55,746 bases of DNA from Kiritimatiellia bacterium (GCA_044343885.1 JBIJDW010000001.1:1-55746), one strand, 5' to 3'; positions 28,487 through 53,651 are shown, counted from the stretch's first letter. The notes: generated by a model not told the origin, from the letters alone. Made by a program: numbers and translations.

Positions 28487-28522
28487 AGGGCTAAGCAAAC
28501 ATCAGAAGAGAGATAAGGCTTT

Positions 28523-29299: not shown

Positions 29300-29402
29300 G
29301 TAGTGACATGTTTCGCATGTAAGGAGAATCAATTGAATACGGAGTGCAACATCGAGAGCGGAAAAAATAGTCGAAAAAAGGGCTTGCATATGGACGTGTA
29401 CA

Positions 29403-29432
29403 ATGATATACCGTGTGTACACGGTATATCAT
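29403..29432. promoter_or_regulatory. 30-bp palindrome, putative operator 1 (abiE promoter region)
   Basis: atgatataccgtgt-gt-acacggtatatcat, with perfect 14-nt arms. Confidence 0.6.
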
Positions 29433-29520
29433 ACCTTACACGTCGCGTGCCTGCGCCTCGTTCGGCAATGATGATTGCCCAAGAATTGTTGAGTTTGGAG
29501 TTGCATGGTGCCAGTGCAGT

Positions 29521-29550
29521 ATGATAAAACGTGTTTACACGTTTTATCAT
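29521..29550. promoter_or_regulatory. 30-bp palindrome, putative operator 2 (abiE promoter region)
   Basis: atgataaaacgtgt-tt-acacgttttatcat, with perfect 14-nt arms. It shares the half-site ATGATAwAmCGTGT with operator 1 and ends 23 nt before the abiEi start. Confidence 0.6.
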
Positions 29551-29573
29551 ATCGTTGATCCGTTGAGGTTCTC

Positions 29574-30461
29574 ATGACCAGACTGACAACCCCTAACAAG
29601 TACGAACTCGCGAACCTGTTGTGTCTTCCACGGCGATATCGCGAGTTGAAGCCCCTGCTGCTTGCGTATATGCCCAAGACGCCGTACAGGCTTCTGGCCT
29701 CCTTTGAGACCGCCTTACGCAGTGATGGCCTCTTGATGGATATGGAACTGAATTCGGATGTCGGGCATGCCGTAACCCTCTATGCGTCCGTCGATCCGGC
29801 CAAGTGGAACACCTACCATGTGGCACAAGCTCTGCGTCCTCAGGGGTACTTTTGCAATCTTACCTCCCTGTACCATCACGGGCTGACCAATCAAGTCCCA
29901 GCACGTGTGTATACGGCCGTGGAAGAGAACAGGGCGAAGGATCAGGCGCAGGAAAAGCGATCCAGGCTCTCGGACGATGCGATATTCGATGCGTTCATTC
30001 AGCCTCACCGCGTGAGCAAGCACAACTATCGGTTCCGGGACAGCGAGATCACGATCACCGAGCGCGTGAGCCACGGTTGCATTGGCGTCGAGAGCGTGGG
30101 CGAAAATAATCGCACCTGCCCCATGGGTGCCCGTGTCACCAGTTTGGAGAGAGCGATGATAGACGCCGTTGTTCACCCCCAGTACAATGGCGGTCTCGCT
30201 GCCGTCGTCGAGATGCTCCGGATAGGCGCGCCCGAGGCAGACGTGAAGCGATTGCTCGGCATTTACGACGCATGCGCTTTTGCGTATCCATACTGGCAAG
30301 CGCTGGGGTTTCTGTTTGAGAGGATAGGCGCGGCCAATATCGCCGATGCTTTTGCTCGGCGCTCACGGCCGGTCAACAAGTTCTATCTGGATCACAACGC
30401 CAAGACATCGTGGGCCTTCGACTCCACATGGTGTATCTACTACCCCAAGGGGGTCGTATGA
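29574..30461 (+). CDS. abiEi: AbiEi-family type IV antitoxin/transcriptional regulator
   Basis: SLYHHGLTNQVPARVY and VTSLERAMIDAVVHPQYNGG resemble AbiEi (COG5340). Paired with the downstream DUF1814 gene by an ATGA overlap. Confidence 0.7.
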   Translation: MTRLTTPNKYELANLLCLPRRYRELKPLLLAYMPKTPYRLLASFETALRSDGLLMDMELNSDVGHAVTLYASVDPAKWNTYHVAQALRPQGYFCNLTSLYHHGLTNQVPARVYTAVEENRAKDQAQEKRSRLSDDAIFDAFIQPHRVSKHNYRFRDSEITITERVSHGCIGVESVGENNRTCPMGARVTSLERAMIDAVVHPQYNGGLAAVVEMLRIGAPEADVKRLLGIYDACAFAYPYWQALGFLFERIGAANIADAFARRSRPVNKFYLDHNAKTSWAFDSTWCIYYPKGVV

Positions 30462-31375
30462 GAATCGAAGACGTGATTGACGAGAGCATTCTGGCTGTTT
30501 TCAAGGATCGCATCCTTTCGCGCCATATGGTGTTGAAAGGGGGCAGCGCCCTCCGCATGCTTGAACACGACCGGACTCGTCTCTCGATTGACGCAGACTT
30601 CTCCGTTCGCGGCTCCATCCGATCATCGGAGCCGTTCTTCGCCAGAATGGAAACGACCCTCTCCCGCGCATTCGCCCCTCGTGATTATTGCGTGATGGAC
30701 TTCCGGGTAACTCCCCGGCCCAAGTGCAGGAAACCACGGATGCCGAGGTGGTGGAAAGGCTGGCTTTGCCAGTTCAAGCTGCTGGCCCGCGAATTCACAA
30801 CCCAGCCGCTGGAGGCGCAACGGCGGCGCGCGTTGGTACCCGAGGGGTCCAACTCGCCGGTGATCGAAATCGAGGTTAGCGAGCACGAGTATTGCGGTAC
30901 TGAAAGGAAGAGACGCATTCGTGGCGTGGTGGTACACGGATACACAAGAGAACTGCTTGTCTTGGAGAAACTGAGGGCAATATGCCAGCAGCACCCCGAG
31001 TACCAGTTCCGTTCGAACAAGAATCGTGCACGGGATTTCTATGACATTCACAGGTTGTGCGGCGGCAGAATGGGGACTCGGTTCGTTCAACGGTGTCGCA
31101 AGGACCTGCCGGCCGTGTTTGGAGCCAAGGCTGTTCCGGTGGATCTGCTGCGCGCACTTTGGGATCCGGAGTTCCTCGTCGTGCAGCAACGAGGTTTCGC
31201 CCAGGTCGTAGACGACGTCAGGGGTGCCGTGCGGGAGTTTGATGTGTATGTGGAATGCCTGCGCTACTTGGTCCAGCGCATCTGCCCTGGAATGCCACGG
31301 TCGGAAACGACTCCCTCGAGCTTACAATCATCATCGCCAGGAGCAACCACATGGACGCAAAAGCACGAACAGTGA
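30458..31375 (+). CDS. abiEii: AbiEii/AbiGii nucleotidyltransferase toxin (DUF1814)
   Basis: VLKGGSALRML..RLSIDADFSV at the N-terminus and RARDFYDI later in the protein. Start set at the ATG at 30458. Confidence 0.8.
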   Translation: MRIEDVIDESILAVFKDRILSRHMVLKGGSALRMLEHDRTRLSIDADFSVRGSIRSSEPFFARMETTLSRAFAPRDYCVMDFRVTPRPKCRKPRMPRWWKGWLCQFKLLAREFTTQPLEAQRRRALVPEGSNSPVIEIEVSEHEYCGTERKRRIRGVVVHGYTRELLVLEKLRAICQQHPEYQFRSNKNRARDFYDIHRLCGGRMGTRFVQRCRKDLPAVFGAKAVPVDLLRALWDPEFLVVQQRGFAQVVDDVRGAVREFDVYVECLRYLVQRICPGMPRSETTPSSLQSSSPGATTWTQKHEQ

Positions 31376-31650: not shown

Positions 31651-34074
31651 ATGGCAAAGCAAAGAATAAAGAGGACAGCAGTAATCGAAGCCAAGCCCTA
31701 CACGGCTGGCTCGAACTGGGTGGGTTCCGTGCAGGATGAGGACGCGACAACCATCGGCGAACGGCTCGCGCAGCGCGTGCGGGCGGTTGCAGAGGCCTAT
31801 ACGACGGGCGACCAGACGCCACCGGCCGCGATTCTGTGGCCCGATGGTGACCGGCGCTGGGCTGGCGTGTTGGCGGAATTGAAGACACTGATCCCGGAGC
31901 TTTATGTGCTGGGCGATTTTGCACCGACAGACAAAACCGGACCGGCAATCTGGCTCCGATGTGTCGAGGCAAGAACCGTGCCCGAGCATCCTGCTTCGGG
32001 GCAGGCACCGATATTCTATCTCCCCGGCGTCAGCCGGCAAGCCCTGCGTGCCGTCGAGGAGAGTCCCGTTGAGTTGGATCCTCTGATTGAACTGCAGTTT
32101 CGCGGGGCCGTGTGGTCGCATCCGAACGGCCGGGACTGGACCCCCTTCGCCTTTCTCACCTCGACCTACGGCGGCTTGGGGCTGGATGTGGCGGACACAG
32201 CCGATACGTCCGTGGCGTTGGACCGGTCACTGGCCGTGCTGCTGAACGAGCGTATCGCCAGTCTGGCCGGATCCCGCCTTGACGCTCCCTTCTTGAATGC
32301 GCTGCTGTCACCTGACCTTCCTGCCGAGATTCTTCGCTGGATGAACGATCCTGCAGAGGCGCGGAAGCGCAAGCCCGATTCGGAGTGGCAGGCTTTCTGC
32401 GCGCAATGCGCGGCCGATTTCCATCTACACCCCGAGACAGACGGCGAACTGCGGGCAGCGGAGCTAATGGGAAACCGTTCCGGTGAGTGGGGCAAGGTCT
32501 GGAAGCGCTTTACCGAAGCACCGAACCGCTATCCCGCTGTGGCCGTTTTGCTCGAACGGGCCTCGCCGACCACGGACGGTATGCTGGGGCTTGATCGCGA
32601 GGTTTGGCCCTGTTTTAACACCCAGGACGAGTCGGACGTTGCTAAAGTGCTCCTGGCGCTGAAAGACAGCCATTCCGAACAGGCTGCCTCCGCTGTCCTG
32701 GAGTTGGAGAAAAAGCACGGCTGCCGGCGCGGCTGGGTCTGGCGCGAACTGGGTCGGGCGCCGTTGGCGGTGGCGCTAGAACACCTGAGCCTTCTGGCGA
32801 CGTTGACACGGAAGGCGCTCGCAGCGGCGGATGCCACCGGAATCGCGGAACAGTTCGCGCAAATCGGATGGGAGGCTGATGCGGCGGCCATAGCAGCACT
32901 GGCGGGTGGAACAGCACCGGGTACGGACGATGCGATCGCCACCGCAGTGCGGGCGCTCTATCTGCCTTGGATTGACCAGTCCGCGCGGAATTTACAGCGG
33001 TTCGCTGCACAGGCGCCCACCTGTATCCAGCCGCGGCTGGAACCGGCGACGCCTGCAGATGGCCGGGTGATTCTTTTTGTGGACGGCCTGCGGTTTGATC
33101 TTGCGCAAAGATTGAGCCGTCTTCTGCACACGATGGGATCCCCCTCCGAACTGCAATGGGACTGGGCTGCTTTCCCTTCGGTGACGGCAACTGGAAAAGC
33201 GGCTGTCTCGCCGATGGCGACCGTTCTGACCGGCGGCGGGCCGGAAGAGGAGTTTGCACCATGCGGCAGCGAAAACGGGCATCGATGGAATGCGGACCGG
33301 TTCCATGCCTTTCTGAAGGCGCAGGCCATTCAATGCCTCCAAGGACGCCTCTGCGGTGACCCGGCAGGGCGCGCGTGGGCTGAAACCGGCACGCTGGATA
33401 GCCGCGGGCACAATGAGGGTGTGAAGGCGGCGAAGACGCTGGATCAGGAAGTCCGAAATATTGCCACCCGCATCCGGGAACTGCTCGATGCCGGCTGGCG
33501 GGAGATCGTCGTGGTGACCGATCACGGGTGGCTGCTCGTGCCCGGCGGCTTGCCAAAGGTGGAACTGTCGCATTACGTAGTCGAAAACCGTTGGGGCCGT
33601 TGCGCGGCGATCAAGGCGGCCGGAGCCACCGATCTGCCCACCCTTCCCTGGTATTGGAACCCCTCTGTCACAGTCGCCACGCCACCCGGTGTGGGCTGCT
33701 TCCGCGCCGGGGTGGAATACGCCCATGGCGGGTTGTCGCTCCAGGAGATGGTCATTCCCCGCCTGACCGTGCGCGCCGGCATGACGGCTAACAGCCAAAG
33801 CAAGATCAGCGGGATCAAATGGGTTAACCAGCGCTGCCGCCTGAGCGTCCAGAATACCCTGCCCGGCCTGCAGGCCGATATCCGCAGCCGTCCCGCAGAT
33901 GCCCGGTCTTCCAAAGTGGAGGGAGGACAGCCGCGCGAGATCGGAACGGACGGAACGGTTTCGCTCATTGTCGGCGATGACCGGGAAGCCGGTAATGCCG
34001 CCGTTATCGTGCTGCTGTCCCCTGACGGAACCCCGATACACACAATCCCCACGGTTATTGGAGAAAACGGATGA
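31651..34074 (+). CDS. pglZ: BREX alkaline-phosphatase-superfamily protein PglZ
   Basis: 807 aa. Contains ILFVDGLRFDLAQRL and VVVTDHGWLLVPGG. Its position precedes brxL. Confidence 0.85.
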   Translation: MAKQRIKRTAVIEAKPYTAGSNWVGSVQDEDATTIGERLAQRVRAVAEAYTTGDQTPPAAILWPDGDRRWAGVLAELKTLIPELYVLGDFAPTDKTGPAIWLRCVEARTVPEHPASGQAPIFYLPGVSRQALRAVEESPVELDPLIELQFRGAVWSHPNGRDWTPFAFLTSTYGGLGLDVADTADTSVALDRSLAVLLNERIASLAGSRLDAPFLNALLSPDLPAEILRWMNDPAEARKRKPDSEWQAFCAQCAADFHLHPETDGELRAAELMGNRSGEWGKVWKRFTEAPNRYPAVAVLLERASPTTDGMLGLDREVWPCFNTQDESDVAKVLLALKDSHSEQAASAVLELEKKHGCRRGWVWRELGRAPLAVALEHLSLLATLTRKALAAADATGIAEQFAQIGWEADAAAIAALAGGTAPGTDDAIATAVRALYLPWIDQSARNLQRFAAQAPTCIQPRLEPATPADGRVILFVDGLRFDLAQRLSRLLHTMGSPSELQWDWAAFPSVTATGKAAVSPMATVLTGGGPEEEFAPCGSENGHRWNADRFHAFLKAQAIQCLQGRLCGDPAGRAWAETGTLDSRGHNEGVKAAKTLDQEVRNIATRIRELLDAGWREIVVVTDHGWLLVPGGLPKVELSHYVVENRWGRCAAIKAAGATDLPTLPWYWNPSVTVATPPGVGCFRAGVEYAHGGLSLQEMVIPRLTVRAGMTANSQSKISGIKWVNQRCRLSVQNTLPGLQADIRSRPADARSSKVEGGQPREIGTDGTVSLIVGDDREAGNAAVIVLLSPDGTPIHTIPTVIGENG

Positions 34075-36230: not shown

Positions 36231-36539
36231 ATGAACACCATCTCTATCACCGTCACACAGAGGGTAATCGATTATCTGAAACTCCAGCCTACTCAGAACC
36301 AGCGGCAGATCGCGATTAAGGACGCATCTTCCGGCATCAGCACCGCCCTTGCTTCAGCCACCAAGGATCATCAGATCGCCCTCCTTGTCGGCAATCGGAT
36401 CAAGTTGTCGGCCGGCGACAACGCAGCCATCTGGCGTTCCCATAACGCAACCACCGTGGCCGAATATGACATCCTCTTCGACCTTCTCGCCCTCCGCCCA
36501 GACATCCCCATGCTCTTTCCCTGTGAGTTGGATCTCTAA
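36231..36539 (+). CDS. hypothetical small protein
   Basis: 102-aa ORF. No family recognised. Confidence 0.4.
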   Translation: MNTISITVTQRVIDYLKLQPTQNQRQIAIKDASSGISTALASATKDHQIALLVGNRIKLSAGDNAAIWRSHNATTVAEYDILFDLLALRPDIPMLFPCELDL

Positions 36540-36931: not shown

Positions 36932-37258
36932 ATGAACGCTTCAAAAGGGGAACCGGTAATGCGGGAGTCATCCACGGAATGCGCCTGCAAACACATTGCA
37001 CAGACGCGGGTGTTGCTGTTGGAGAAGGCCAAGGGATACCCGGAGCACTACTGGTTCGCCATGGGACATCTCGCAGAAGCCGAGGAAGAACTCGTTAAGG
37101 ATTTCCCGGAGAAGACGGCGCTGGTGAGAGCCGAACGCCTGAACCTACAGAAGAACAGGGACTATGAGATGCCCTTCGCGGACCTGATCAACGCGATCTG
37201 CAATGTTGTAGGGAAGATAAGCCACCTCGGAGCCGATGGACACGTCGGGCGTTCCTGA
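36932..37258 (+). CDS. hypothetical helical protein
   Basis: 108-aa ORF with plausible composition. An alternative ATG lies at 36959. Confidence 0.4.
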   Translation: MNASKGEPVMRESSTECACKHIAQTRVLLLEKAKGYPEHYWFAMGHLAEAEEELVKDFPEKTALVRAERLNLQKNRDYEMPFADLINAICNVVGKISHLGADGHVGRS

Positions 37259-37522
37259 CCTTACGGTTGCGGCGGTCGGCCCCGGCCTGTACTCGGTGTC
37301 GCTCTGAGTGCTGGCCGATTCCGCCTACATCGTCGCCTGCGCCCGGCGGGGGAGCATGAGGGGCTCCGCCGCGACGCTGGTCATCCCGGCTCCCATCCAC
37401 ATCGAGGACTTGTCTGGGGATTGACATCGCAGCCTGTATGCACTATAAAGCGCCCTATCACATGCAATACACAGGAGCGTCCCGAGGTGATGCGGCTCCG
37501 AGCGCACGCCGGGCGTGATGCG

Positions 37523-37738
37523 ATGACCAAGAACACGGAGAGCAACGTGGCGGAGATGGTTAAAAAAATGAGGGCCAAACTCGGCCTGACGCAGGAGCAG
37601 TTCGCAGCCAAGGTTGGCGTGACATGGTCCACCATCAACCGATGGGAGAACGGGCGTGGCAAGCCGTCGCCACTAGCAATGCGCCGAATCGAAGAACTTG
37701 GGGCCGAACCCCTGAAGAAGGAGCAAGCCTCACAATGA
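37523..37738 (+). CDS. XRE-family helix-turn-helix regulator
   Basis: MRAKLGLTQEQFAAKVGVTWSTINRWENGRGKPS is a canonical HTH_3 motif. Start set at the ATG at 37523. Confidence 0.8.
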   Translation: MTKNTESNVAEMVKKMRAKLGLTQEQFAAKVGVTWSTINRWENGRGKPSPLAMRRIEELGAEPLKKEQASQ

Positions 37739-37884
37739 TGGCACGGGGGCTGCGATGAAGACGAGTTCTTTCAATTCCAACAACCGGTCTTGTGTTTCAG
37801 GTCTCGCTGACCACCATGCACATGGTCCTAGACCGCCGGACAGAGACAATCATCGGGCATGGCCTGACGGATTGATTCACCACA

Positions 37885-40395
37885 GTGTCGGCTGCCAAAT
37901 GGGGAACGGAACCTATGAACAACATCGCCCGTGATGCTTCGCAGTCGATCCACTTCCCCCCGTATGCCCACAAGGACAACCACACGATCAAGTCGTCCCT
38001 GCGATCAATAACCAGACGGCTCCGTGACGCATACTACAGCGCATGCCCTCAACGCGCAGAAGTCTATACAACGCCATTCGGAGGTCCCATTGGCGACTCC
38101 ATCGGCCCATGGCCCGAGTTCATTTTGCGGGGTCTACCATGCCAGAAATCTAAGCAAGGCTGCTGTACGCCATGCTTCTACTCACGAATGCCACAAGTCT
38201 CCTTGCCTCGACAGGACGTCTACGAATCACTTGTGGAGCAGGTCAACTATATCCTGCGGAACTTCGACGCGCTTGTCACACGTAACCAATGGGGCCCGGT
38301 GGCCTGGGCCGGCGATAAGACAGATAGCATCCCAGTCGCATTCGTTCTGACACCTACGGGGTCCTTCTTTGATGAAATCGAGTTCCCGCTTCATGTGCGG
38401 ACTCACATCCTGTCAATTCTCGCCAAGCATTCTATTGAGACAGGCATCCCGATTGCACTGCACGTCGAGACGCACGCGGAACACTTCCTTGCCGCCTCAG
38501 AGAATCAGGAGGGGTTCGCACAGACAATCGATCTCCTCAAACGGCTTAACGGAAGAATACTGTTCGGATTTGAGAGCAGCGACGCATTTGTCAGGAATGT
38601 CCTCTACAACAAGTTCCTGGAGGAAGCCGTGTTCCTGAGTGCTGCCGAACTGGCTAAGTCAGTGGGGCTAGGCGTGGGTGCGTTTGCGTTCGCCGGGATA
38701 AACCCACTGAACGATGCCGAGATTCTGGCGGACTCCGTGAAGACGCTGGCATTCCTGCACACTCATCAGATTGCGCCGGTTTTGATGTTCCACAATGTCC
38801 AGTCCTACACCATCCAAGAACTCCTGTTTCTTTACGGCGCACACACACTCCCGGAACCGAGAACCGTTCTGGAAGTGGTCAACAACCTCCTGCAGACAAC
38901 GCCCGACAACCGTCGAGGCAACATAGACTCTTGGTTGATTGCCGACCCTGTAGGGGGTCCACCTCCACCTCGGTACAACATCTTTGCCAGCCGCAAGCAC
39001 GTTACGTGTTCGCGGTGCACCGATGCCATCTACCGGGCGGTCGTGCATCTTCGTCAGACCCGCGACGTCGATGCGTATCTGGTCGTAGCCCGTGATCTGG
39101 CAGGGTGTTCGTGTGCGACGAGCTACGTTAACCTGCTCCAACAGCAATCGAAGGAGAATAGCGCTCTCATCAGGCGCACGGCCGACATGGTTCGCATCGC
39201 TTCCGACAAGGTTGGTGACTACGTCGCAGTGGTCAGGCCGATAATGAATGAAGTTGAGGAATTCAGCCTCTTTCAGGACAACGTTCCGCGTTACGGCCAA
39301 CTCAATGATCCTGCCGTTGATGGCCCGATGCTCAAGGCGGAACTGCTCTGCTATGGCATCCGCATCGCGCCTGATCTCAAAGAAGACCTGTTGCGTTTCA
39401 ACTCGTATGTCCACGAAGCCGGTTTCGTGCATGCGGCCCACTTCATGATTGGCACGCATCTGGTGAATACCTGTGTCGCCGAGTCGTTCTGCGAACAGTC
39501 GCCCTATGTCCTGAAACGCCGCAACGAACACTACGAACTCTCCAAGGAAGGCATCATCGTTGCTCCGTGCGATGTTCTGCCAACTCCTTCTTGGTGCGGC
39601 ACAGTTGTCGATGGCTTTAAGCTCGGGGATATACTGCGACCGCACAGCCGAAATGTCATCTCTGGCATGCCCAACCCGATCTGCTGCTATTTTCGGTCAA
39701 ACGAGGGATGTGCCTTCTGCAGCCTGGGAAGGCTCCAGAACTCAAGACCAATCCCTCCGACAACGGTAGCGCAGGCCGCTGTCATCGCTCGGCAACACAA
39801 TCCCGACTATGAACTTGCGCTGAGTGGCGGTACTTCGCACACGCCGGACCGAAGTGCTTCGTATTTTGCTGAGATCGCGCGTCAGATCACGCGAGAAACG
39901 CAAATGGCAATATCTGTGGAACTGGTCCCACCTGAGAGTACGGACTTTCTTGACGAGTTGAAGGCTTCGGGAGTCACATCGGTAATACTGAACATTGAAC
40001 TTTGGAATCAGCCGTTACGGTCCGTCTACTGTCCGGGTAAAGCGCGGATACCGCTTGAGAGCTACCTCAAAGCCATTGAGCACGGCACGAGCTTGTTTGG
40101 CCGGGGGCAAGTCGCGTCTGTGCTGATCGCTGGCTTGCAGTCCCCCAGTGCTGTCGTCGAAGGGGCGCGAGAGGTGATAAGTCGAGGAGCGATTCCGACA
40201 ATCATTCCATTCAAGCCGTTCGATGACTGCAAGATGGCCAATGCACCGAGGACTAGGCCCGAGGAAGTGACTGAGATACATGCTGCTGTCGCAGATCTAC
40301 TGACTCAGTCTCAACTCGGACCACGAATGCAGCGTGGATGCACCGGATGCGGCGGATGTTCGCTTGAGAACCTTCAATCAAGGAGTGGCCGATGA
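37885..40395 (+). CDS. Tandem (double) radical-SAM-like protein; the N-terminal half looks TIGR01210/RaSEA-like
   Basis: 836 aa (GTG at 37885; alternative ATG at 37915). There are two C-x7-C-x2-C triads: C86/C94/C97 (CQKSKQGCCTPCFY) and C601/C609/C612 (CYFRSNEGCAFC). Half 1 motifs are FGFESSD and HNVQSYTIQELL..LPEPRTVLEV. Half 2 motifs are LALSGGTS, ISVELVP and SVLIAGL. A terminal cluster reads CTGCGGC. Confidence 0.6.
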   Translation: MSAAKWGTEPMNNIARDASQSIHFPPYAHKDNHTIKSSLRSITRRLRDAYYSACPQRAEVYTTPFGGPIGDSIGPWPEFILRGLPCQKSKQGCCTPCFYSRMPQVSLPRQDVYESLVEQVNYILRNFDALVTRNQWGPVAWAGDKTDSIPVAFVLTPTGSFFDEIEFPLHVRTHILSILAKHSIETGIPIALHVETHAEHFLAASENQEGFAQTIDLLKRLNGRILFGFESSDAFVRNVLYNKFLEEAVFLSAAELAKSVGLGVGAFAFAGINPLNDAEILADSVKTLAFLHTHQIAPVLMFHNVQSYTIQELLFLYGAHTLPEPRTVLEVVNNLLQTTPDNRRGNIDSWLIADPVGGPPPPRYNIFASRKHVTCSRCTDAIYRAVVHLRQTRDVDAYLVVARDLAGCSCATSYVNLLQQQSKENSALIRRTADMVRIASDKVGDYVAVVRPIMNEVEEFSLFQDNVPRYGQLNDPAVDGPMLKAELLCYGIRIAPDLKEDLLRFNSYVHEAGFVHAAHFMIGTHLVNTCVAESFCEQSPYVLKRRNEHYELSKEGIIVAPCDVLPTPSWCGTVVDGFKLGDILRPHSRNVISGMPNPICCYFRSNEGCAFCSLGRLQNSRPIPPTTVAQAAVIARQHNPDYELALSGGTSHTPDRSASYFAEIARQITRETQMAISVELVPPESTDFLDELKASGVTSVILNIELWNQPLRSVYCPGKARIPLESYLKAIEHGTSLFGRGQVASVLIAGLQSPSAVVEGAREVISRGAIPTIIPFKPFDDCKMANAPRTRPEEVTEIHAAVADLLTQSQLGPRMQRGCTGCGGCSLENLQSRSGR

Positions 40396-40964
40396 AAGTG
40401 CTGGCTCTATGCGGTAGTCCCAGGGCAAACGGAAACACGTCGCAACTGTTGGCAGTTGTGGCAAGCGAATTGAGGAGCCAAGGGCATTCGGTCGACATTC
40501 TCAACCTTGGGGATCTCGCAATCGCAGACTGCAATGGATGCCTCGTATGTGAGGAGACCGAATGCAGCGGAGATTGCTCTATTGAGGACGATATGCAACG
40601 GAGAGTCGTCCCGCTCTTGCTCGCCGCTGACGCTATAATTCTTGGCTCTCCCAGTTATTTTGACATGCCAAGCGCACAGATAAAGCGTTTTATGGATCGG
40701 TCCAACATGGTGTTGAACAGAATCACCAAGAAGGGCATGGCGTGCGCTTTGGTCGTTGTCGGGCAATCCGAAATGGCCAGTCTCAATGCCGCGTGTCGCG
40801 CATTGAGACGATATACCAAGATCTGTGGCATGAAGGAAGTTAGGGGCAGCCCGGTGCGTGTGATAGCAAGGGACGAGGGCGATGTGCGGGCGAGCAAGTC
40901 CGCAATCGATGAGGCAAAGGGGCTGGCAAACGGGCTGATTGCCGCCGTAAGGAAGGCGACATGA
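40392..40964 (+). CDS. Iron-sulfur flavoprotein (Isf-type, NADPH-dependent FMN reductase fold)
   Basis: MKVLALCGSPRANGNTS, then the compact Cys motif C47-x2-C50-x2-C53-x4-C58, then IILGSPSYF. ATGA overlap with the upstream gene. Confidence 0.75.
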   Translation: MKVLALCGSPRANGNTSQLLAVVASELRSQGHSVDILNLGDLAIADCNGCLVCEETECSGDCSIEDDMQRRVVPLLLAADAIILGSPSYFDMPSAQIKRFMDRSNMVLNRITKKGMACALVVVGQSEMASLNAACRALRRYTKICGMKEVRGSPVRVIARDEGDVRASKSAIDEAKGLANGLIAAVRKAT

Positions 40965-42256
40965 AGAACGACATAGGCGACCTGGAGGAACGATCTGATC
41001 CAGGATCATCAGACGCAATCGAGATGGGCTTGCGGCGCAAGGAACAAAAGCTGTTCCAACGCTTTCAGGCCATACGGGAGACCGTTCTCAAAGAGATTGC
41101 TTCGCGGCAGCAGAATGCCAAAGACACCCAGGCGTCTGGAGCGCACTTGGAGTCTGTGCAGCGAATTCTTGCAAGTCTGATTCCGGCCGAACACGTGTCC
41201 AAGTATAATGCCATCGAGTTGTTCGTGTTGCTTGTGGCGGTATACCTTCATGATATCGGTAAGACGCAAACCGCAGGCAAGGACAAACAGCATCACAGCA
41301 CGGTGGGCCGCGAGGTCCTGATGGAACATGCCAAGATTCTCCACCTCGAAGAGCCAGAGGCGCTGGCTGTCGGGTACGTGATCGAGGGTCATGGCCCCAC
41401 CGACATCGCCCGACTTCCTGAATCTAAGGGCATTGCGCCGTACGGCGCAATAAGGTTGCGTCCCCTGGCGGCAATCCTTCGCCTTGCTGACGACCTCGAC
41501 ATGACATTCACTCGGGCGTCGCAGATAAGCCGCAGCATTGTGAAACCCGGCCCGGATATCGACACGAAATGGAATCTTAGGCAATGCGTCGACAACGTGA
41601 GGATCGAGCCTGCCACTTGGTTCATTGAAGTGCAGGCTACACCTCGAAACGCCGGAGATATGGCGTTGCTGCAACGCGAAATCGAGGTGGTGAATGCGCG
41701 ACTTCTGGACGGGCGTCGGTTCCTGCGTGACGTGGGGCTCTGCTACTCGGTAGTGGATGTTAGCATTGACTATTGCTGGATGAAGGATGCGTCCGAGAAG
41801 ACTGCCGCTACTGCTGGCCCGGCAGATCGAGAAGTCGGCGCCGCGAAGGCCTCGGATGCCCGCGGCAACACAGCGGTTGTCATACTTCGATATGATCCGG
41901 CGTCAATGAACCTCTACCAGGATGTCATTGAGCCGTGTCTTCGAGAGAGTGGTCTGTCGCCAGCTCTCATTGAGAGCATGCTTCCAGAAGACACGATCTT
42001 GGAAAGAACGCGGCGTGCCATCGAAGATGCAGCACTAGTTGTTGTCATACTGACGGGTGGCGGTAGTCCATCGGTTCACTTCCGGCTCGGTGTCGCTGCT
42101 GGTTTGGATCGCGAGATTCTCGCTTTTACGTCATCTGGTGCCACAATGATTGGCGATCTTTGCGGGTTGAGAACCCGCATATTTGACACCGAAGAAGAGC
42201 TCCGGCAGCAACTCAAGGACGAACTATCAAGACGTACTGCAAGTGAGATGAGGTGA
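40961..42256 (+). CDS. HD-domain phosphohydrolase with C-terminal TIR/NDT-like module
   Basis: HD-domain motifs VAVYLHDIGK, HH..VG, IEGHG and LRLADDLD. The C-terminal ~130 aa (VVILRYD ... AALVVVILTGGGSPSVHFRLGVAAGLDREILAF) resemble TIR-like nucleotide-binding domains. ATGA overlap with the upstream gene. Confidence 0.65.
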   Translation: MKNDIGDLEERSDPGSSDAIEMGLRRKEQKLFQRFQAIRETVLKEIASRQQNAKDTQASGAHLESVQRILASLIPAEHVSKYNAIELFVLLVAVYLHDIGKTQTAGKDKQHHSTVGREVLMEHAKILHLEEPEALAVGYVIEGHGPTDIARLPESKGIAPYGAIRLRPLAAILRLADDLDMTFTRASQISRSIVKPGPDIDTKWNLRQCVDNVRIEPATWFIEVQATPRNAGDMALLQREIEVVNARLLDGRRFLRDVGLCYSVVDVSIDYCWMKDASEKTAATAGPADREVGAAKASDARGNTAVVILRYDPASMNLYQDVIEPCLRESGLSPALIESMLPEDTILERTRRAIEDAALVVVILTGGGSPSVHFRLGVAAGLDREILAFTSSGATMIGDLCGLRTRIFDTEEELRQQLKDELSRRTASEMR

Positions 42257-42508
42257 AGGGGACAGGGAAACAGCGTCAGGATGCAGCGGGGATCAGTAGA
42301 TGTATGGATGAATTACGCGGCTTCTTGGGGACGATTGCGTAGAAGTGTATGTTTCAGGCGCGATCAGTCGACTGTTGACCGTTTGGTGCGAGCCGAACGC
42401 CTGTTATGTCGCATCGAACCGGATTAACGGGCACAGCGGGATCGCTGCAACGGGTGTTGCGTTAGCCGATCTGCTGGCAGAAAGTTTAAATAATGTCAGG
42501 AATGCCGC

Positions 42509-43766: not shown

Positions 43767-43988
43767 TCAATCTGCCATCAGCAGGCTCCAGTCACAGGCC
43801 AAAGCTTTCTGAATCCGGGCGGTCGTGGTGATGAGGATGTTCGTTTGGCCGGCTTCGATCTTCTGGACGGTGCGGATATTCAGGTCGGTCAATTCGGCCA
43901 GTCTTTCTTGCGTCATGCTGCGTGCGGTTCGCAACCGCCGAACATTTGCGCCGAAAATCTGAAGCCGGGGTTTTAGTATCTTGTCCAT
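43767..43988 (-). CDS. XRE-family helix-turn-helix regulator
   Basis: LRTARSMTQERLAELTDLNIRTVQKIEAGQTN. This is the only clear minus-strand gene inside the island. It is divergent from the Sel1/protease gene. Confidence 0.8.
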   Translation of the reverse strand: MDKILKPRLQIFGANVRRLRTARSMTQERLAELTDLNIRTVQKIEAGQTNILITTTARIQKALACDWSLLMAD

Positions 43989-44016
43989 TGCGGTGCATTA
44001 TGGCGTAATCTGTCGG

Positions 44017-44046
44017 TTGACAGTACGGCACAACAGGGCGTATCTT
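44017..44046 (+). promoter_or_regulatory. Putative sigma70-type promoter (TTGACA-18-TATCTT)
   Basis: ggttgacagtacggcacaacagggcgtatcttg lies 60 nt upstream of the ATG at 44107. A near copy occurs at 47611..47639. Confidence 0.5.
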
Positions 44047-44106
44047 GTGGGGCAATGAGTAGCATGCCGGATCTGTTTGATTCCACGCCCAACCGAGAGG
44101 AGTATT

Positions 44107-47100
44107 ATGCCCCAACCGACTCACCGCCGCCTGATCGCCATCTTCCTGATGACGCTGGCCATCACCGCAGCGGCATCCCGCGCGGCTGACAAGCAACCCG
44201 CCGTTGAGAGCGTGCCTGCCGACGTGAAGCGTGCAATCGCCTCGGAAATGCGCGAGCTTGAGAGTTTCACCCGTTCCGGCGTCAAGACGGATGCCGACTT
44301 TGTCCGCCCCCTCACTCAAACACGGTACAGCGTCTGGTTATCCGCCGCCAACGGGGGCTTGGCCGACGGCCAGTTCCTGATCGGCGTGTGCCACCTCGAC
44401 GGAATAGGCACACGAACCAACGCCACGGCAGCGGTGCAATGGTTCCGCAAGGCCGCCGAACAAAGCCACGCACGGGCGCAGTATGACCTCGGACGCTGTT
44501 ACGCCAACGGCGATGGCATTGAGAAGGACCCCACCGAGGCCGTCCGCTGGTTCAAAAAGGCGGCCGAACAGGGCGACGCCATGGCGCAGTTTTACCTCGG
44601 TGTTTGCTACTCCAATGGTAACGGCGTCGGAGAGGAACCCGCCGAGGCCGTTCGCTGGTGGAAGAAGGCGGCGGATCAGGGCGCTGCCGAGGCGCAGTAT
44701 AATCTCGGATGCTGTTACGCCAATGGCAACGGCGTCGGAGAGGAACCCGCCGAGGCCGTTCGCTGGTGGAAGAAGGCGGCGGATCAGGGCGATGCCGAGG
44801 CGCAGTATAATCTCGGATGCTGTTACGCCAATGGCAACGGCGTCGAGAAAAGCCTCACCGAGGCCGTCCGCTGGTACAAGAAGGCTGCGGAACAAGGTTA
44901 TGCCGATGCGCAGGTTAATCTCGGTGTTTGCTACCACACCGGCGCTGGCGTCGAGAAGAACCCCGCCGAGGCCATCCGCTGGGTCAAGAAGGCTGCGGAA
45001 CAGGGCCTTGCCTTGGCGCAGTTGAACCTCGGTTCTCGTTACTACATAGGCGATGGCGTCGAGGAGGACCCCGCCGAGGCCGTCCGCTGGTACAAGAAGG
45101 CAGCGGAACAAGGCAATGCCGACGCGCAGTTAATGCTCGAACACTGGTACACTGCCGGCGAGGGCGTCGAGAAGGATCCCGTCAAGGCCGCCCGCTGGTA
45201 CAGGGAGGCGGCGGAACTGGGCATTGCCAGGGCGCAGGTTAATCTCGGTAACCGTTACGCCAACGGCATCGGCGTCGAGAAGAACCCCGCCGAGGCTGCC
45301 CGCTGGTACAAGAAGGCAGCCGAACAGGGAGATGACAGGGCGCGGTTTAGTCTCGGTGTCTGTTACGCAACCGGTAACGGCGTCGAGAAGGATCCCTCCG
45401 AGGCTGCCCGCTGGTACAAGAAGGCATCCGAACAGGGCAATGCCGAGGCGCAGTATAATCTCGGGATCTGTTACGTAACCGGCGACGGTGTCGGGAAGAA
45501 CCCCGCAGAGGCCGTCCGATGGTTCAAGAAGGCGGCGGAAAGGGGCCATGCCGAGGCGCAGGGTATGCTTGGACTTCACGCCGAGGCGCAGGGTATGCTT
45601 GGACTCCACTACGCCGACGGCGACGGCGTCGAGAAAAACCTTTCCGAAGTCTTCCGCTGGTACAGGAAGGAGACGGAACAGGGAGAGGCCGAGGCGCAGG
45701 GTATTCCCGGTGCTTGTTACGCCGACGGCGACGGCGTCGAGAAGAACCGTGCCGAGGCCGCCCGCTGGTGGAAGGGTGAAGCCGAACAGGGCAATGACTG
45801 GGCGCAGTATTGGCTCGGACGCTGTTATGCCGTCGGTGAGGGTGTCGAGAAGGACCCTGCCAAAGCCGTCCGCTGGTTCAAAAAGGCGGCCGAACAGGGC
45901 TATGCCGACGCGCAGTATAAGCTCGGATGCTGTTACGCCAAAGGCGAAGGCATCGAGAAGAACGCCGCCGAGGCCGTCCGCTGGCACCGGAGGGCAGCCG
46001 AGCAGGGCGATGCCAGATCGCAGTATAATCTCGGGCTCTGTTATGCCAACGGCCTCGGCGTCGAGAAGTCTCCCGCCGAGGCCTTCCGCTGGTTCCGGAA
46101 GGCGGCGGATCAGGGCAACGCCGCGGCGTATCATAACCTCGGTGTTTGCTATGCCGCTGGTGAGGGCATCAAGAAGGACCCAGCCACGGCCTTCCGCTGC
46201 TTCGGGGTTGCGGCGGAGCTGGGATATGCCGACGCGCAGTATACTCTCGGATGCCATTACGCCATCGGCCTCGGCGACGAGCAGGACTTCGCCGAGGCCG
46301 CCCGCTGGTTCCGGAAGGCCGCTGACCAAGGTAATGCCGAGGCGCAACATCGCCTCGGTGTTTGTTACGCCGAAGGCGACGGCGTCGGGAAGAACTCCGC
46401 CGAGGCCGCCCGCTGGTGGAAGAAGGCGGCGGATCAGGGCCATGCCGAAGCGCACAACAACCTGGGATTTGGCTATGAGAAAGGAGCTGGAGTCGTCCAG
46501 GACAACGCGCAGGCCTGTGTCCATTTTCTGATTGCCAATGCGTTGGGCTGTACAGGTACAGAGCTAATGCAGAGCAATCTCCGAATCATCCGCGCCCGTC
46601 TCTCCGGGGCGCAATATGCGGCGGCGCAGCAGGCGGCGACCCGGTGGGTCGAGAAGTTTCGCTCGGGTGAGAGGCAGACCCCGGATGCGGCTATGCCCCC
46701 GACTGCTCCACCGCCCACTGACACGGTGAAAGCAACCGGTTCCGGGTTCGTCATCAGCACGGACGGCTATTTTCTCACCTGCGCCCATGTCATCGAAGGC
46801 GGGCGCGAGATCAAGGTGCGGATCGGCGACAAGACCCACCCGGCCAAAGTCGTCCGCGCCGACCGTCGGAACGACGTGGCCTTGCTCAAACTGGAAGGCG
46901 AGGGCTTCACCCCCCTGGCCCTGGCCCAGTCCATTCCCGAAATGGGTGACAAGGTCTTCACGATTGGATACCCGAACCCCGGCATCCAGGGCGGCGCCGC
47001 CAAATACACGGACGGCGTGATCAGCGCCCTCTCGGGCCTTCAGGACGATGTCCGCACCATGCAGATTACGGCCTCGGTCCAGGTGGGAAACTCCGGAGGC

Positions 47101-47352
47101 GTCTTGGCGGACGCAGCCGGCAATGCCATCGGTCTGGTCGTGGCCCAACTCAACGCCATAGCGGTTTTCGAGTACACAGGATCAATCCCCCAGAACGTCG
47201 CCTTCGCGGTGAAGAGCAACTACGCCCTGCCGCTGATCCAAGCCGTTCCCAATCTGGCCCGCCGCCTTCCCCCGCCGGCGAAGCCTGCGGCGAACGTCAG
47301 CCCAATCAAGGCGGTGGAGGCCGCAACCGGGCTGGTGATTGTGAATGAGTGA
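44107..47352 (+). CDS. Secreted Sel1-repeat (SLR) protein fused to a trypsin-like (S1/HtrA-type) serine protease domain
   Basis: Signal peptide RRLIAIFLMTLAITAAASRAA. About 20 units of 36 aa follow (A.RW..KAAEQG.A.AQ..LG.CY..G.GV.K). The C-terminus has GSGFVIS..LTCAHV, NDVALLKL and GNSGGV, the His/Asp/Ser triad context. Confidence 0.85.
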   Translation: MPQPTHRRLIAIFLMTLAITAAASRAADKQPAVESVPADVKRAIASEMRELESFTRSGVKTDADFVRPLTQTRYSVWLSAANGGLADGQFLIGVCHLDGIGTRTNATAAVQWFRKAAEQSHARAQYDLGRCYANGDGIEKDPTEAVRWFKKAAEQGDAMAQFYLGVCYSNGNGVGEEPAEAVRWWKKAADQGAAEAQYNLGCCYANGNGVGEEPAEAVRWWKKAADQGDAEAQYNLGCCYANGNGVEKSLTEAVRWYKKAAEQGYADAQVNLGVCYHTGAGVEKNPAEAIRWVKKAAEQGLALAQLNLGSRYYIGDGVEEDPAEAVRWYKKAAEQGNADAQLMLEHWYTAGEGVEKDPVKAARWYREAAELGIARAQVNLGNRYANGIGVEKNPAEAARWYKKAAEQGDDRARFSLGVCYATGNGVEKDPSEAARWYKKASEQGNAEAQYNLGICYVTGDGVGKNPAEAVRWFKKAAERGHAEAQGMLGLHAEAQGMLGLHYADGDGVEKNLSEVFRWYRKETEQGEAEAQGIPGACYADGDGVEKNRAEAARWWKGEAEQGNDWAQYWLGRCYAVGEGVEKDPAKAVRWFKKAAEQGYADAQYKLGCCYAKGEGIEKNAAEAVRWHRRAAEQGDARSQYNLGLCYANGLGVEKSPAEAFRWFRKAADQGNAAAYHNLGVCYAAGEGIKKDPATAFRCFGVAAELGYADAQYTLGCHYAIGLGDEQDFAEAARWFRKAADQGNAEAQHRLGVCYAEGDGVGKNSAEAARWWKKAADQGHAEAHNNLGFGYEKGAGVVQDNAQACVHFLIANALGCTGTELMQSNLRIIRARLSGAQYAAAQQAATRWVEKFRSGERQTPDAAMPPTAPPPTDTVKATGSGFVISTDGYFLTCAHVIEGGREIKVRIGDKTHPAKVVRADRRNDVALLKLEGEGFTPLALAQSIPEMGDKVFTIGYPNPGIQGGAAKYTDGVISALSGLQDDVRTMQITASVQVGNSGGVLADAAGNAIGLVVAQLNAIAVFEYTGSIPQNVAFAVKSNYALPLIQAVPNLARRLPPPAKPAANVSPIKAVEAATGLVIVNE
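44350..46530 (+). repeat. 108-bp periodic coding repeat array (Sel1 units)
   Basis: Includes two adjacent 108-bp units differing at one base (about 44627-44734 and 44735-44842). Also includes a 30-bp in-frame tandem duplication (45548-45577 and 45578-45607, HAEAQGMLGL x2). Confidence 0.9.
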
Positions 47353-48279: not shown

Positions 48280-49317
48280 ATGCAGGAATACCAAGCCAAA
48301 GGACGCACGTACCGTCTCGCCAGCAACCTCAAGGGTTTCCGACTGGGCATATATACCCATCTCACAGACCGAAAGTGGGCGAACTGGACAGAGGAGTGCG
48401 GCTACTACCGCTACAAAGACAAGCTTATCCCTTACGACATCCTATTGCCTGACGAAATGAAAGCGAAACTGGAGCCGGTCTACCGGCCCATTGTGGATCG
48501 GGTGCTGGAGCACCAACGCCGGTTCCCATTCAAACTGCACAAATTCGTGGGACACATGGCCAGTTCGCAGGCGGCGTGCCTCAACCTCTTTGTACCGCTC
48601 TTACTTCAGCCCTCCATCGCATCCGATGTCTTGCGGATGATTAAGCCCGACCTTCAGTCAATCGCTACCGACCATCTCGATGGAGGTTTTCAAGTCGAAT
48701 TCTGGCCGGGCAAAGGCCTGCAGAAGGGCCTGCTGCAAGACCACACGACCATCGCCGGAACCGATGCCGATATCGCCATTGCCTATCGGGACCGGGAAGG
48801 CCATCTGAGATTGTGGCTGATCGAGCACAAGTTGACCGAGCAGGAGTTCACAACTTGTGGCGGTGCCAAGAGTTCCTGCCGAACCGATCAGCATCGGTGC
48901 AGCCCGGCCGCAGACGTCCTGAGTGACCATTCTCTTTGCTACTACCATGAGCACTGCAAGTACGCATATTGGCCAATCACCGACCGGCACTCCGAAATCT
49001 TTTCGCCGGAAAGGCTAGTTGCACAAGACACCTGTCCGTTCAAGGGCGGCTTGAACCAGCTTTGGCGCAATATGCTTCTGGCTATGGCGGTTCAGGACGA
49101 GCCACAATCGCCCTATGCAGGCGTGCATTTCTCTGTTGTCCATCACCCCGACAATCACGCGCTGGATGCGTCCATGAAGGCATTCCAGCAGTTGCTTGGC
49201 AACAGTAACCAGTTCTCGTGGTTCACGTCTGATCGGATCGTGAACGCCCCTGCCGTCGCAACGATACCAGCGCTCAAAGGGTGGGCGACGTGGTACAAGA
49301 AACTCTACCGTGTTTGA
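48280..49317 (+). CDS. PD-(D/E)xK restriction-endonuclease-fold protein (putative)
   Basis: GTDADIAIAY ... LWLIEHKLTE gives a D...E-x-K arrangement. 345 aa. Confidence 0.55.
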   Translation: MQEYQAKGRTYRLASNLKGFRLGIYTHLTDRKWANWTEECGYYRYKDKLIPYDILLPDEMKAKLEPVYRPIVDRVLEHQRRFPFKLHKFVGHMASSQAACLNLFVPLLLQPSIASDVLRMIKPDLQSIATDHLDGGFQVEFWPGKGLQKGLLQDHTTIAGTDADIAIAYRDREGHLRLWLIEHKLTEQEFTTCGGAKSSCRTDQHRCSPAADVLSDHSLCYYHEHCKYAYWPITDRHSEIFSPERLVAQDTCPFKGGLNQLWRNMLLAMAVQDEPQSPYAGVHFSVVHHPDNHALDASMKAFQQLLGNSNQFSWFTSDRIVNAPAVATIPALKGWATWYKKLYRV

Positions 49318-49321
49318 TGAT

Positions 49322-50344
49322 ATGCAGAGCCATATCGATGGCCACGCACTTGGAGGCACAATAATGAGTATCGCAACGACGCAACTAAAGGGACCTGACT
49401 TGTTTTGGCATCGAGGCAAGGGAAAGAAAATGACCACCCTTAGGTTCTATAGATGGGATCGTGAGACTTTTGGAAAGCCGGTACCGATCATAGAGATGTG
49501 TTTAAAAGAGTTTAGTGGTACGTGTTATATCCTGAAACACGAGGATTGTTCGATCCCCGAATGGGCGTCAGCAAACGTTAATAGTTATTTGAAAGCCGAT
49601 CAAATCCGAGAACAAGAGAATGAGGTGCTGAACCGAGCATTCATGGCATTGCGCAATCCGGCGAACCCTCCTTTCAAAATGCCGTCTGCACTACGCAAGC
49701 CTACAGACGGCAGTCTGCGCGCTTGCCGTTTATGGATTCTTTCAATACCAACTAAAGGACAAAAGGAGGTGTTCATCCTTGAGATAATCTGGCCTTGTGC
49801 AAGCTCTTTTATTCCCGATAAAATCAACGAACGCGCTGTGGGGGTTGCCCTACCGGATGAAGCGAAGCGAGCTCCCGCTACACTGCTTTCCTTGCCACAA
49901 GAAGACTATGTCGAGTGTCCGCTGATTGATTATCGCATCTCGCGACTTCATAAAGCCGAGCAGGCGAAGCTTATCACCGAGAAAGTTGGAGACATTCCGT
50001 GCGTAAAGGAAATCCTCGGGAAGAGCATTGAGACTCCAGACACACAACGTCCTAACCAGAATGAAGTCAGTGGAGCTACTGCTGCAAAACTATGTCGCGT
50101 TACAGAAAGAACAATTCGAAATTGGGAGGAAGACAAAAGTATAAAGGCGCCTCCCGGCTATCCTGGACGAACTAGCCGGGCGACGTTGACAGAATGGGCT
50201 GAAGCACGGAGAAAACAAAAGAGTATTAATCAGTACGCGCGGAAGAGCAGAGATAGCATCAGAAGACCTTGTCACCCTGATAATTTGGGTTCGAACCGCA
50301 TTCAGGAGGAGGATGGGGAGAAGGAGAATGAGGCGGAAGAATAG
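49322..50344 (+). CDS. hypothetical protein with C-terminal helix-turn-helix
   Basis: SGATAAKLCRVTERTIRNWEED is an HTH-like segment. GC is lower (~45%). The start is uncertain: GTG 49310, or ATG at 49322, 49364 or 49430. Confidence 0.5.
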   Translation: MQSHIDGHALGGTIMSIATTQLKGPDLFWHRGKGKKMTTLRFYRWDRETFGKPVPIIEMCLKEFSGTCYILKHEDCSIPEWASANVNSYLKADQIREQENEVLNRAFMALRNPANPPFKMPSALRKPTDGSLRACRLWILSIPTKGQKEVFILEIIWPCASSFIPDKINERAVGVALPDEAKRAPATLLSLPQEDYVECPLIDYRISRLHKAEQAKLITEKVGDIPCVKEILGKSIETPDTQRPNQNEVSGATAAKLCRVTERTIRNWEEDKSIKAPPGYPGRTSRATLTEWAEARRKQKSINQYARKSRDSIRRPCHPDNLGSNRIQEEDGEKENEAEE

Positions 50345-53210: not shown

Positions 53211-53651
53211 AACGTTTGAAAAGTTTGCTATGAATGCCGTCCGGCAAACTTTTCACACACGGCTTATTAGACCGTGTGAAAAGTTTAGACGGCGGGACGA
53301 CACACGGGAAAGGTGAACGATGGGAAAGAGCAATCCAAGCATGGTTCACGCCCACCGAGCGCACAGGCGCGGCACAGGCGGCGCGTTCCACGAGCGGGCG
53401 GAGCCGGAAGACGGGCAGCGGCCCGACGAAGATGGGCAGGGGGGGCTGACAGAGACTCCGATTGCGCGGCCCTACCCCGTAAGCAGAGCGCCCTCGCGCG
53501 CGCGTGGAGAAAAATCTGGAAGGTATTTTGGAAGGTTTGGAAGGTAATCTGGAAGGTGTTGTCACAGTTCGCCACAATGCGGCAGATTGAAGCAATGAAA
53601 GGAATATTGCGCTTTTATTGGCCTTTTTTGGCATTAATCAGATTCAAAGGT

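Follow-up and report, generated by a model that had tools for sequence, protein, structure and literature searches.

A fused twin radical-SAM enzyme with an iron-sulfur flavoprotein and an HD-domain protein: a candidate immune cassette in a Kiritimatiellia defence island

The radical S-adenosylmethionine (radical-SAM) enzyme pVip, the prokaryotic viperin, is found in defence islands, often near nucleotide kinases, and likely makes an antiviral small molecule; it is a single protein of ~300 amino acids (aa) with a CX3CX2C motif, without a dedicated reductant or an HD partner. Ophion combines a radical-SAM protein (OpnA), a PHP phosphoesterase (OpnB) and a phosphoribosyltransferase (PRTase, OpnC) (bioRxiv 10.1101/2025.09.30.679545), and the HXS defence system uses a radical-SAM maturase (PMC13128918). 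A preliminary description of the locus treated here had taken viperin to be the only radical-SAM enzyme in defence, a statement that Ophion and HXS overturn. The locus lies in a 55,746-nt stretch of DNA from a Kiritimatiellia bacterium (GCA_044343885.1, JBIJDW010000001.1:1-55746), hereafter the window, and is a cassette of four genes at positions 37523-42256, all on the + strand. They encode an XRE regulator and a trio made up of a fused twin radical-SAM enzyme, an Isf-type flavoprotein and a protein that joins an HD domain to an NDT-like domain. This trio recurs beside anti-phage systems in unrelated microbes and is therefore probably an undescribed immune module, to judge from sequence.

The cassette resembles pVip in placing a radical-SAM enzyme in a defence island. 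It differs in having two barrels with Cx7Cx2C and Cx8Cx2C cysteine triads, and viperin itself ranks 47th by Foldseek, with an E-value of 2e-3, among generic radical-SAM matches. The likeness to Ophion is one of parallel logic: both consist of three genes that bring together a radical-SAM enzyme, a metal phosphoesterase and an N-ribosyl-bond enzyme or fold. The parts are nevertheless non-homologous, with PHP in Ophion and HD here, a PRTase there and an NDT-like fold here, and double barrels unrelated to viperin. The private flavoprotein is a feature of the cassette as compared with Ophion, which occurs in Gammaproteobacteria, whereas the cassette is found mostly in anaerobes and archaea.

At least nine independent loci have a known defence system as immediate neighbour of the module, and six or more system types are represented, as tallied from selected large neighbour genes and not as a systematic genome-wide score. 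In the window the neighbour is BREX with Gabija and AbiE; in a second locus (L016; loci are numbered with the prefix L) it is a different BREX subtype, and the module again follows directly after brxL. Elsewhere the neighbours are Thoeris and Dnd (L002), type III restriction-modification (L009), Hhe/PDC-S37 (L014), a TIR-effector-like protein and a caspase with an adjoining integrase (L001), Wadjet (L036), Lamassu (L042) and type IIG restriction-modification (L058). Insertion sequence (IS) elements and recombinases are common near the loci. No tRNA-modification or cofactor-biosynthesis neighbourhood, which the preliminary description had named as the sign of a non-defensive role, occurs among the loci examined. 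No PADLOC v2 family matched the radical-SAM enzyme at E<=0.1, and the flavoprotein was likewise unmatched. Literature searches on radical-SAM defence, HD-CE and TIGR01210/TIGR04043 yielded no description of the cassette; the conflict-systems paper of Kaur et al. (2020) mentions a different radical-SAM effector. With a conserved trio, recurrent defence neighbours and no PADLOC family, the earlier proposal of a candidate undescribed defence system is supported.

The cassette family is very rare and is scattered patchily across bacteria and archaea. A collection of 5.8 billion sequences held 69 proteins, with Dehalococcoidia and Hodarchaeota among the matches; the 185,579 species genomes searched yielded nine, which belong to Clostridia, Fibrobacterota-like metagenome-assembled genomes and Methanosarcina, and metagenomes yielded another 41 loci. 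An exhaustive profile search returned 486 representatives at E<=1e-30, most of which are stand-alone proteins of an N-type (~420 aa) or a C-type (~365 aa), with ~15 fused clusters. Two uncharacterised radical-SAM families are delimited by this search, with ~500 representatives and informative fusions: relatives of one half or the other are joined to GNAT, AdoMet decarboxylase, ATP-grasp, methyltransferase or Fe-ADH domains.

Three clades of gene order can be distinguished. In clade A, whose members share 50-63% identity with the window enzyme, the fused radical-SAM gene is followed by FMN_red and by the HD-NDT-like protein, and the trio is complete in all nine clade-A loci with enough DNA. In clade B (32-46% identity) the radical-SAM pair, often two genes, is followed by FMN_red and by protein X, a soluble protein of ~1000 aa with TPR-like repeats. 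Homology of protein X to the HD protein was considered and rejected (hhalign probability 0.2%), and a PDB profile search with protein X gave no match. The HD gene (10 loci) and the X gene (21 loci) never occur together as third genes, and the split between them follows the radical-SAM phylogeny. In clade C, FMN_red precedes a small membrane protein, the N-type enzyme and a different, canonical radical-SAM enzyme. The third architecture was seen at L049 7800-10095 and in L052 and L055-L058, where a ~575-aa protein accompanies the N-type enzyme, FMN_red and the different, canonical radical-SAM enzyme; at L049 the partner of the N-type enzyme and FMN_red is a small HD protein that stands alone, recognised by eye only, in a housekeeping-like context.

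Other genes recur near the module. A homologue of the pyruvoyl-dependent arginine decarboxylase PvlArgDC is present in all three clades and lies directly upstream in L023-25; methyltransferase, aldehyde dehydrogenase, GHMP and P-loop kinases and an EamA exporter are further recurrent neighbours, a P-loop kinase and a GHMP kinase standing together beside the module in L004. Further proteins of NDT/TIR-like type are encoded in L001, L023 and L014 (DUF4062), and the C-terminus of X in L008 is of the same type; those of L001 and L023 keep the catalytic Glu.

A decayed clade-A copy was found in L036 (6467-12192), directly after the Wadjet genes jetA and jetC: its radical-SAM gene is in fragments, the flavoprotein gene is gone, and the HD gene is broken by a 454-aa reverse-strand open reading frame (ORF), probably an IS element. 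Phage-borne copies were considered and rejected: the only phage match, in the UNVERIFIED record MT835476, is a relative of the C-half that stands alone in the midst of metabolic genes of bacterial type; the neighbours there (L065, MT835476.1 73611-92642) are ABC-transporter, sugar-kinase, TetR, GNAT and FAD-oxidoreductase genes, and the stretch looks bacterial. Plasmid-borne copies were rejected as well, the matches examined being Nit1C-type relatives that cover the C-half only; 371 Klebsiella plasmid records match part of the query at E<=1e-10.

The AlphaFold model of the large protein has a predicted local distance difference test score (pLDDT) of 88.7; in it a disordered linker, residues 459-478, connects two (beta/alpha)6 barrels. 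Foldseek was run on the whole model, and the two halves were compared individually by sequence profiles. The top structural matches are all radical-SAM proteins (NifB, BioB, LipA, RlmN, Elp3, HydG and ThiH), and the model thus supports the radical-SAM fold predicted earlier for each half. In the N-half, the triad C86/C94/C97 (Cx7Cx2C) directly follows strand 78-81, strand 1 of the modelled barrel, and is at least 90% conserved in 42 homologues. The preliminary description had the first triad right and shifted the second by one residue: C600 and C601 are both present, and the conserved triad, invariant in the same homologues, is C600/C609/C612 (Cx8Cx2C). Also invariant are C375/C378/C408, absent from the preliminary description, and the terminal C819/C822/C825, a motif already noticed in the first reading; C819-x2-C822-x2-C825 probably holds an auxiliary cluster. 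No SPASM/twitch Pfam match was obtained in the large protein.

The two halves are only remotely related to one another, and recent duplication was rejected (hhalign probability 1.6%). They are encoded by separate adjacent genes in L014, L016, L018, L019 and L040-44, where the N-half gene is ~420 aa long; the window protein therefore represents the fused form of an enzyme that otherwise has two subunits. Such a pattern has a precedent in FO synthase, in which two radical-SAM domains, CofG and CofH (FbiC), make one product and are split or fused according to lineage. The cassette shares this fused or split pattern and differs in partners and context, and its match to CofH reaches 13 bits against a cut-off of 426.

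The only family match of the N-half is to TIGR01210/RaSEA (E 1.1e-11), its best named relative, with 44.5 bits against a cut-off of 212.15; it gave no match to PF04055, and a profile search of the PDB found no protein related to it in sequence. The substrate of RaSEA is a preQ0-lysine adduct in tRNA (PMC11298593). No ArcS or ArcTGT partner occurs among the called or scanned neighbours in the window and related loci, where not every neighbour was scanned. Given the remote score and the absence of ArcS/TGT from the neighbours examined, the likeness to RaSEA put forward in the preliminary description is borne out as a distant one, and the 7-deazaguanine chemistry attached to it is not indicated. 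Over-expression of the CARF protein MM_0565 of Methanosarcina mazei strongly induces MM_2688 (radical SAM), MM_2691, MM_2692 (oxidoreductase) and MM_2693 (‘RaSEA’) (PMC7465815). These genes may form a cluster related to the cassette and controlled by CRISPR-associated signalling; a search for homologues of the N-half of Methanosarcina sp. Mfa9 returned no M. mazei protein.

The C-half passes the cut-offs of NF045502 (variant_rSAM; 166 bits against 125) and PF04055 (32.7 bits against 29.5) and falls below that of TIGR04043 (159.8 bits against 303.7). Its PDB profile matches are ThiH (2e-5), NifB and BioB, and its closest annotated relatives are the MSMEG_0568 proteins of Nit1C clusters, at 25-28% identity. 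The C-half and MSMEG_0568/Nit1C have in common the NF045502 match, a flavoprotein and relatives with GNAT domains. They differ in the TIGR04043 score and in surroundings, since no nitrilase or AIR-synthase-like neighbours are present in the window, while true Nit1C members on plasmids have nitrilase, GNAT and AIRS-like neighbours.

The second protein of the trio matches PF03358 (FMN_red) with 88.7 bits. It has cysteines at C47, C50, C53 and C58, which had been read as the complete Fe-S motif; the fold and the motif hold, and the fourth cysteine conserved across 12 partner proteins is C62. Combining the FMN_red fold with a compact four-cysteine motif, the protein is assigned by sequence to the Isf type. 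It shares with the Methanosarcina thermophila Isf type the FMN_red/flavodoxin-like fold and a compact CX2CX2CXnC motif, and is distinguished from it as the translationally coupled partner of a radical-SAM enzyme. Of 52 non-redundant loci, 36 have the flavoprotein gene next to one or two radical-SAM genes; truncated contigs account for many of the others. We infer that it is the dedicated reductant of the radical-SAM pair.

The third protein had been described as an HD phosphohydrolase fused to a TIR/NDT-like module. Its HD domain matches PF24391 (HD-CE), an effector domain of conflict systems, with 63.7 bits against a cut-off of 27, and PF01966 with 28.4 against 22. Residues H62, H97-D98, H111-H112, H144 and D177-D178 are invariant in the alignment, and the protein is predicted to be an HD-CE phosphohydrolase or nuclease with intact metal ligands. 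The HD domain drew weak PADLOC matches to the HD nucleases of Cas3 and Cas10 only. HD-CE was also found together with PF20703, a STAND NTPase family, in protein P0083. Only 13 full-length homologues of the HD-NDT-like protein were found, several of which share a contig with the radical-SAM enzyme.

The second domain of this protein, residues 302-430, shares its fold with NDT, DNPH1, MilB and BcmB and with TIR domains. Foldseek E-values for this region are 0.01-0.1, with a target-normalised TM-score of up to 0.75; the TIR matches, at 0.03-0.1, are weaker than the likeness to NDT, DNPH1, BcmB and MilB. The match to Nuc_deoxyrib_tr (PF05014) is below the cut-off (15.7 bits against 28.8), and no TIR match was obtained from Pfam or PADLOC for the window protein, which has Arg at the aligned acidic position. 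In hidden Markov model alignments to NDT and DNPH1, FRLG stands opposite FE[LV]G and an invariant R375 takes the place of the catalytic Glu. This replacement makes glycosidase or TIR NADase activity unlikely, and the domain is probably a binding module and not an enzyme; the earlier account was right about the HD domain and the fold, and the catalytic residue that an active NDT-like enzyme would have is missing. Tested against their defining features, which it lacks, the cassette is not RaSEA, Nit1C-NitD, NDT, TIR or pVip. It would represent an enzyme-based defence centred on nucleotides or metabolites, with a real chance that its chemistry and its signalling logic are both new.

The data presented above have led us to a tentative model, which we favour while granting that it may well be wrong, of a defence cassette in which the radical-SAM pair and its private flavoprotein make a small molecule derived from a nucleotide or an amine, with the HD protein as output. 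The paired barrels, each with its own variant triad, whether fused as in the window or encoded by two adjacent genes, would receive electrons for their clusters from the Isf-type flavoprotein, making the cassette independent of host flavodoxin. By analogy with CofG and CofH of FO synthase, the two barrels would carry out coupled radical steps on one small molecule, whose precursor, judging from partners and fusions, is probably a nucleotide, an amine of the arginine or polyamine type, or a conjugate of these. The disabled NDT-like pocket of the HD protein (Glu to Arg) would bind the product or a nucleotide, and the intact HD site might then cleave phosphoesters of nucleotides or nucleic acids and halt phage replication. 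Protein X, unrelated to the HD protein, would be the output of the sister clade, and in the window the XRE protein may repress the cassette until it is needed. A bolder form of this model, which we hold to be doubtful, makes the product a nucleotide-amine second messenger formed by radical chemistry, read by the degenerate NDT-like pocket and switching on the HD nuclease or NTPase, with HD and X as exchangeable outputs in different bacterial and archaeal lineages.

Several observations weigh against this model. No defence neighbours were seen among the genes scanned in L004, L006, L008 and L049, whose surroundings are agr and ribosomally synthesised and post-translationally modified peptide (RiPP) genes (L004), nucleoside transport (L006), GDPD and acyltransferase genes (L008) and housekeeping genes (L049); among non-redundant loci whose flanks could be used, about one third are defence-positive, a fraction taken from selected neighbours and not from a systematic survey. 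No infection sensor is evident in the cassette. The predicted structure of the HD protein reaches no more than a moderate confidence, with a pLDDT of 71, and its Foldseek matches have weak E-values. Detoxification of oxidants is another known role of Isf proteins. The recurrent accessory genes (PvlArgDC, methyltransferase, aldehyde dehydrogenase and the EamA exporter) have a biosynthetic look, as do the fusions to GNAT, AdoMet decarboxylase and ATP-grasp domains in relatives. The modified nucleotide of the preliminary description stays conjectural; accessory genes and fusions point at least as much to chemistry derived from amines or amino acids.

These accessory sets, with the nucleotide-type kinases that adjoin the module, and the same defence context could also be read in the manner of viperin and Ophion: the product itself would be the antiviral agent, such as a chain-terminating or poisonous nucleotide analogue, and the HD-NDT-like protein would not be an effector but a pathway or self-protection enzyme that dephosphorylates, supplies substrate or removes the toxic product. 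Ophion, with its radical-SAM enzyme, PHP phosphoesterase and PRTase, is such a combination; in the biosynthesis of oxetanocin an HD protein, OxsA, is the partner of a radical-SAM enzyme, OxsB; and the NDT relatives MilB and BcmB, both among the Foldseek matches, act in nucleoside-antibiotic pathways. We nevertheless regard this explanation as unlikely. The sister clade swaps the HD protein wholesale for the unrelated ~1000-aa TPR protein, a replacement that makes better sense if the third gene is an exchangeable output than if it encodes a pathway enzyme; the catalytic Glu is missing from the NDT-like domain; and viperin ranks low by Foldseek, with no PADLOC match to pVip.

A second explanation, of similarly low probability in our estimate, takes the cassette for a mobile biosynthetic unit without an immune role, making an amine- or amino-acid-derived metabolite, cofactor or signal and sharing only insertion hotspots with defence systems. 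The accessory genes and fusions listed above, PvlArgDC of all three clades, GHMP kinase and Fe-ADH among them, speak for it, as do the metabolic Nit1C cluster to which the closest annotated relatives of the C-half belong and the loci without a recognisable defence neighbour. It fits poorly with the at least nine independent loci beside at least six system types, twice directly after brxL in different BREX subtypes, and with a third gene that carries HD-CE in a cassette in and beside which NDT/TIR-like domains recur. The extreme rarity and patchy distribution of the family across bacteria and archaea, and the decayed, IS-disrupted copy in L036, typical of dispensable accessory genes, argue in the same direction.

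More remote still is a modification-restriction scheme in which the radical-SAM pair marks host DNA or tRNA and the HD nuclease attacks nucleic acid that is unmarked (or marked). It would accommodate the distant RaSEA likeness of the N-half, the presence among the Foldseek matches of Elp3 and RlmN, which like RaSEA have RNA as their target, the weak similarity of the HD domain to Cas3 and Cas10 nucleases, the proximity of BREX, Dnd and restriction-modification and the resemblance of the XRE protein to restriction-modification control proteins. The cassettes in the loci examined contain, however, no TGT/DpdA-like protein, helicase or other DNA-binding component, the RaSEA score falls far short of the required value, the accessory enzymes are those of small-molecule chemistry, and the C-half groups with small-molecule enzymes of the ThiH, BioB and NifB type. 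It is just as improbable that the radical-SAM pair is a maturase that arms the third gene product or a peptide post-translationally, in the manner of HXS or of glycyl-radical activation: the third gene is always adjacent and is swapped as a unit, HXS offers the precedent of a radical-SAM-matured defence effector, and the terminal CxxCxxC could be an auxiliary cluster of the peptide-modifying type, but there is no conserved small ORF or precursor upstream, no SPASM/twitch match and no motif shared by the HD protein and X, and the decarboxylase, methyltransferase and kinase partners would be left unexplained.

If the cassette protects against phage, it would add to viperin and Ophion a third, non-homologous lineage of radical-SAM immunity, which would be specialised for anaerobes and archaea, in which defence is poorly explored. 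The product of the two-barrel enzyme would very likely be a new metabolite, possibly an antiviral one of nucleoside-like character. A private Isf reductant would exemplify a defence cassette with its own electron supply, and the exchange of HD for X would offer a natural experiment that separates ‘synthase’ from ‘output’. Should the second-messenger form hold, this would be the first immune signal made by radical chemistry.

The arrangement of the window locus is given in Table 1. The last three genes are joined by ATGA overlaps, exactly at 40392-40395 and 40961-40964, and the position of all four on one strand downstream of BREX in a tRNA-integrated island agrees with what was first reported. 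The radical-SAM ORF can be read from a GTG, while the NCBI/ENA gene call starts at ATG 37915 and gives 826 aa; the latter is the likely true start. A JGI call of 735 aa would cut off the conserved first cysteine triad. The XRE protein drew PADLOC matches to control-protein and RmrA-type HTH models. No XRE homologue lies upstream of the other clade-A loci, where regulators vary by locus; the XRE gene, which had been counted as part of the system, is specific to the window locus and lies outside the conserved cassette. The promoter-like site in front of it was not listed by the consensus promoter scan because its -10 hexamer ends in A.

Table 1. Features of the cassette and its borders, in window coordinates
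Feature	Position	Strand	Remarks
Putative promoter-like site	37421..37449	+	TTGACA-17 nt-TATAAA, near-consensus, read from sequence; 5' of XRE gene
XRE/HTH_3 regulator	37523..37738	+	71 aa; Pfam HTH_3 4.6e-14; alternative start 37487 gives 83 aa
Fused radical-SAM ORF	37885-40395	+	836 aa from GTG
N-terminal radical-SAM half	37915..39258	+	residues 11-458 of the 836-aa ORF; Cx7Cx2C, C86/C94/C97
C-terminal radical-SAM half	39319..40395	+	residues ~479-836; small beta-rich domain, then barrel
Isf-type Fe-S flavoprotein	40392..40964	+	FMN_red fold; start overlaps upstream stop (ATGA)
HD-CE and NDT-like protein	40961..42256	+	HD ~aa 18-255; Rossmann-type domain aa 302-430
Weak terminator-like hairpin	42380..42399	+	~125 nt 3' of last gene; from consensus scan, no commoner than in shuffled sequence

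The cassette lies ~1.4 kb downstream of brxL, which ends at 36122 and belongs to a type I BREX operon carrying Gabija and AbiE insertions. The stretch from brxL to the XRE gene contains two small ORFs, 36231-36539 (102 aa) and 36932-37258 (108 aa); all sister contigs have gene calls for both, and neither matches a family. A RiPP precursor was sought in the 700 nt upstream of clade-A genes and rejected, the small ORFs there being shared only among near-identical contigs. The whole region forms a 44-kb tRNA-Val island flanked by a perfect 48-bp direct repeat (9743-9790 and 53651-53698) that corresponds to the 3' part of tRNA-Val, and its integrase gene occupies 9946-11589. To the left of the island, outside it, are genes for TilS and a tRNA U5-methyltransferase.

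Within the BREX operon, the insertion spans 24369-31375, between pglX (20933-24259) and pglZ (31651-34074): the Gabija genes GajA (24369-26597) and GajB (26594-28486) are followed by two unknown genes and the AbiEii toxin gene (30410-31375). Near the integrase end, a 246-aa protein with a RelA/SpoT domain (12510-13250) may be a toxic small alarmone synthetase module of the toxSAS/CapRel type. Beyond the cassette, the locus at 43767-47352 encodes a 1091-aa protein with ~17 Sel1 repeats and a C-terminal trypsin-like protease, together with a divergent XRE gene (43767-43988, - strand) and a strong promoter-like site (44017-44046). Weak PADLOC matches relate the Sel1-protease protein to the protease portions of RT-protease, LmuA and Avs1b, and it may be another single-gene defence candidate. 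Further on, at 48280-50344, an REase-ARP/PDDEXK nuclease gene (48280-49317) is followed by an overlapping gene for a 344-aa protein, and on sister contigs small PLD-like and DUF6915 ORFs are called just 5' of the nuclease gene.

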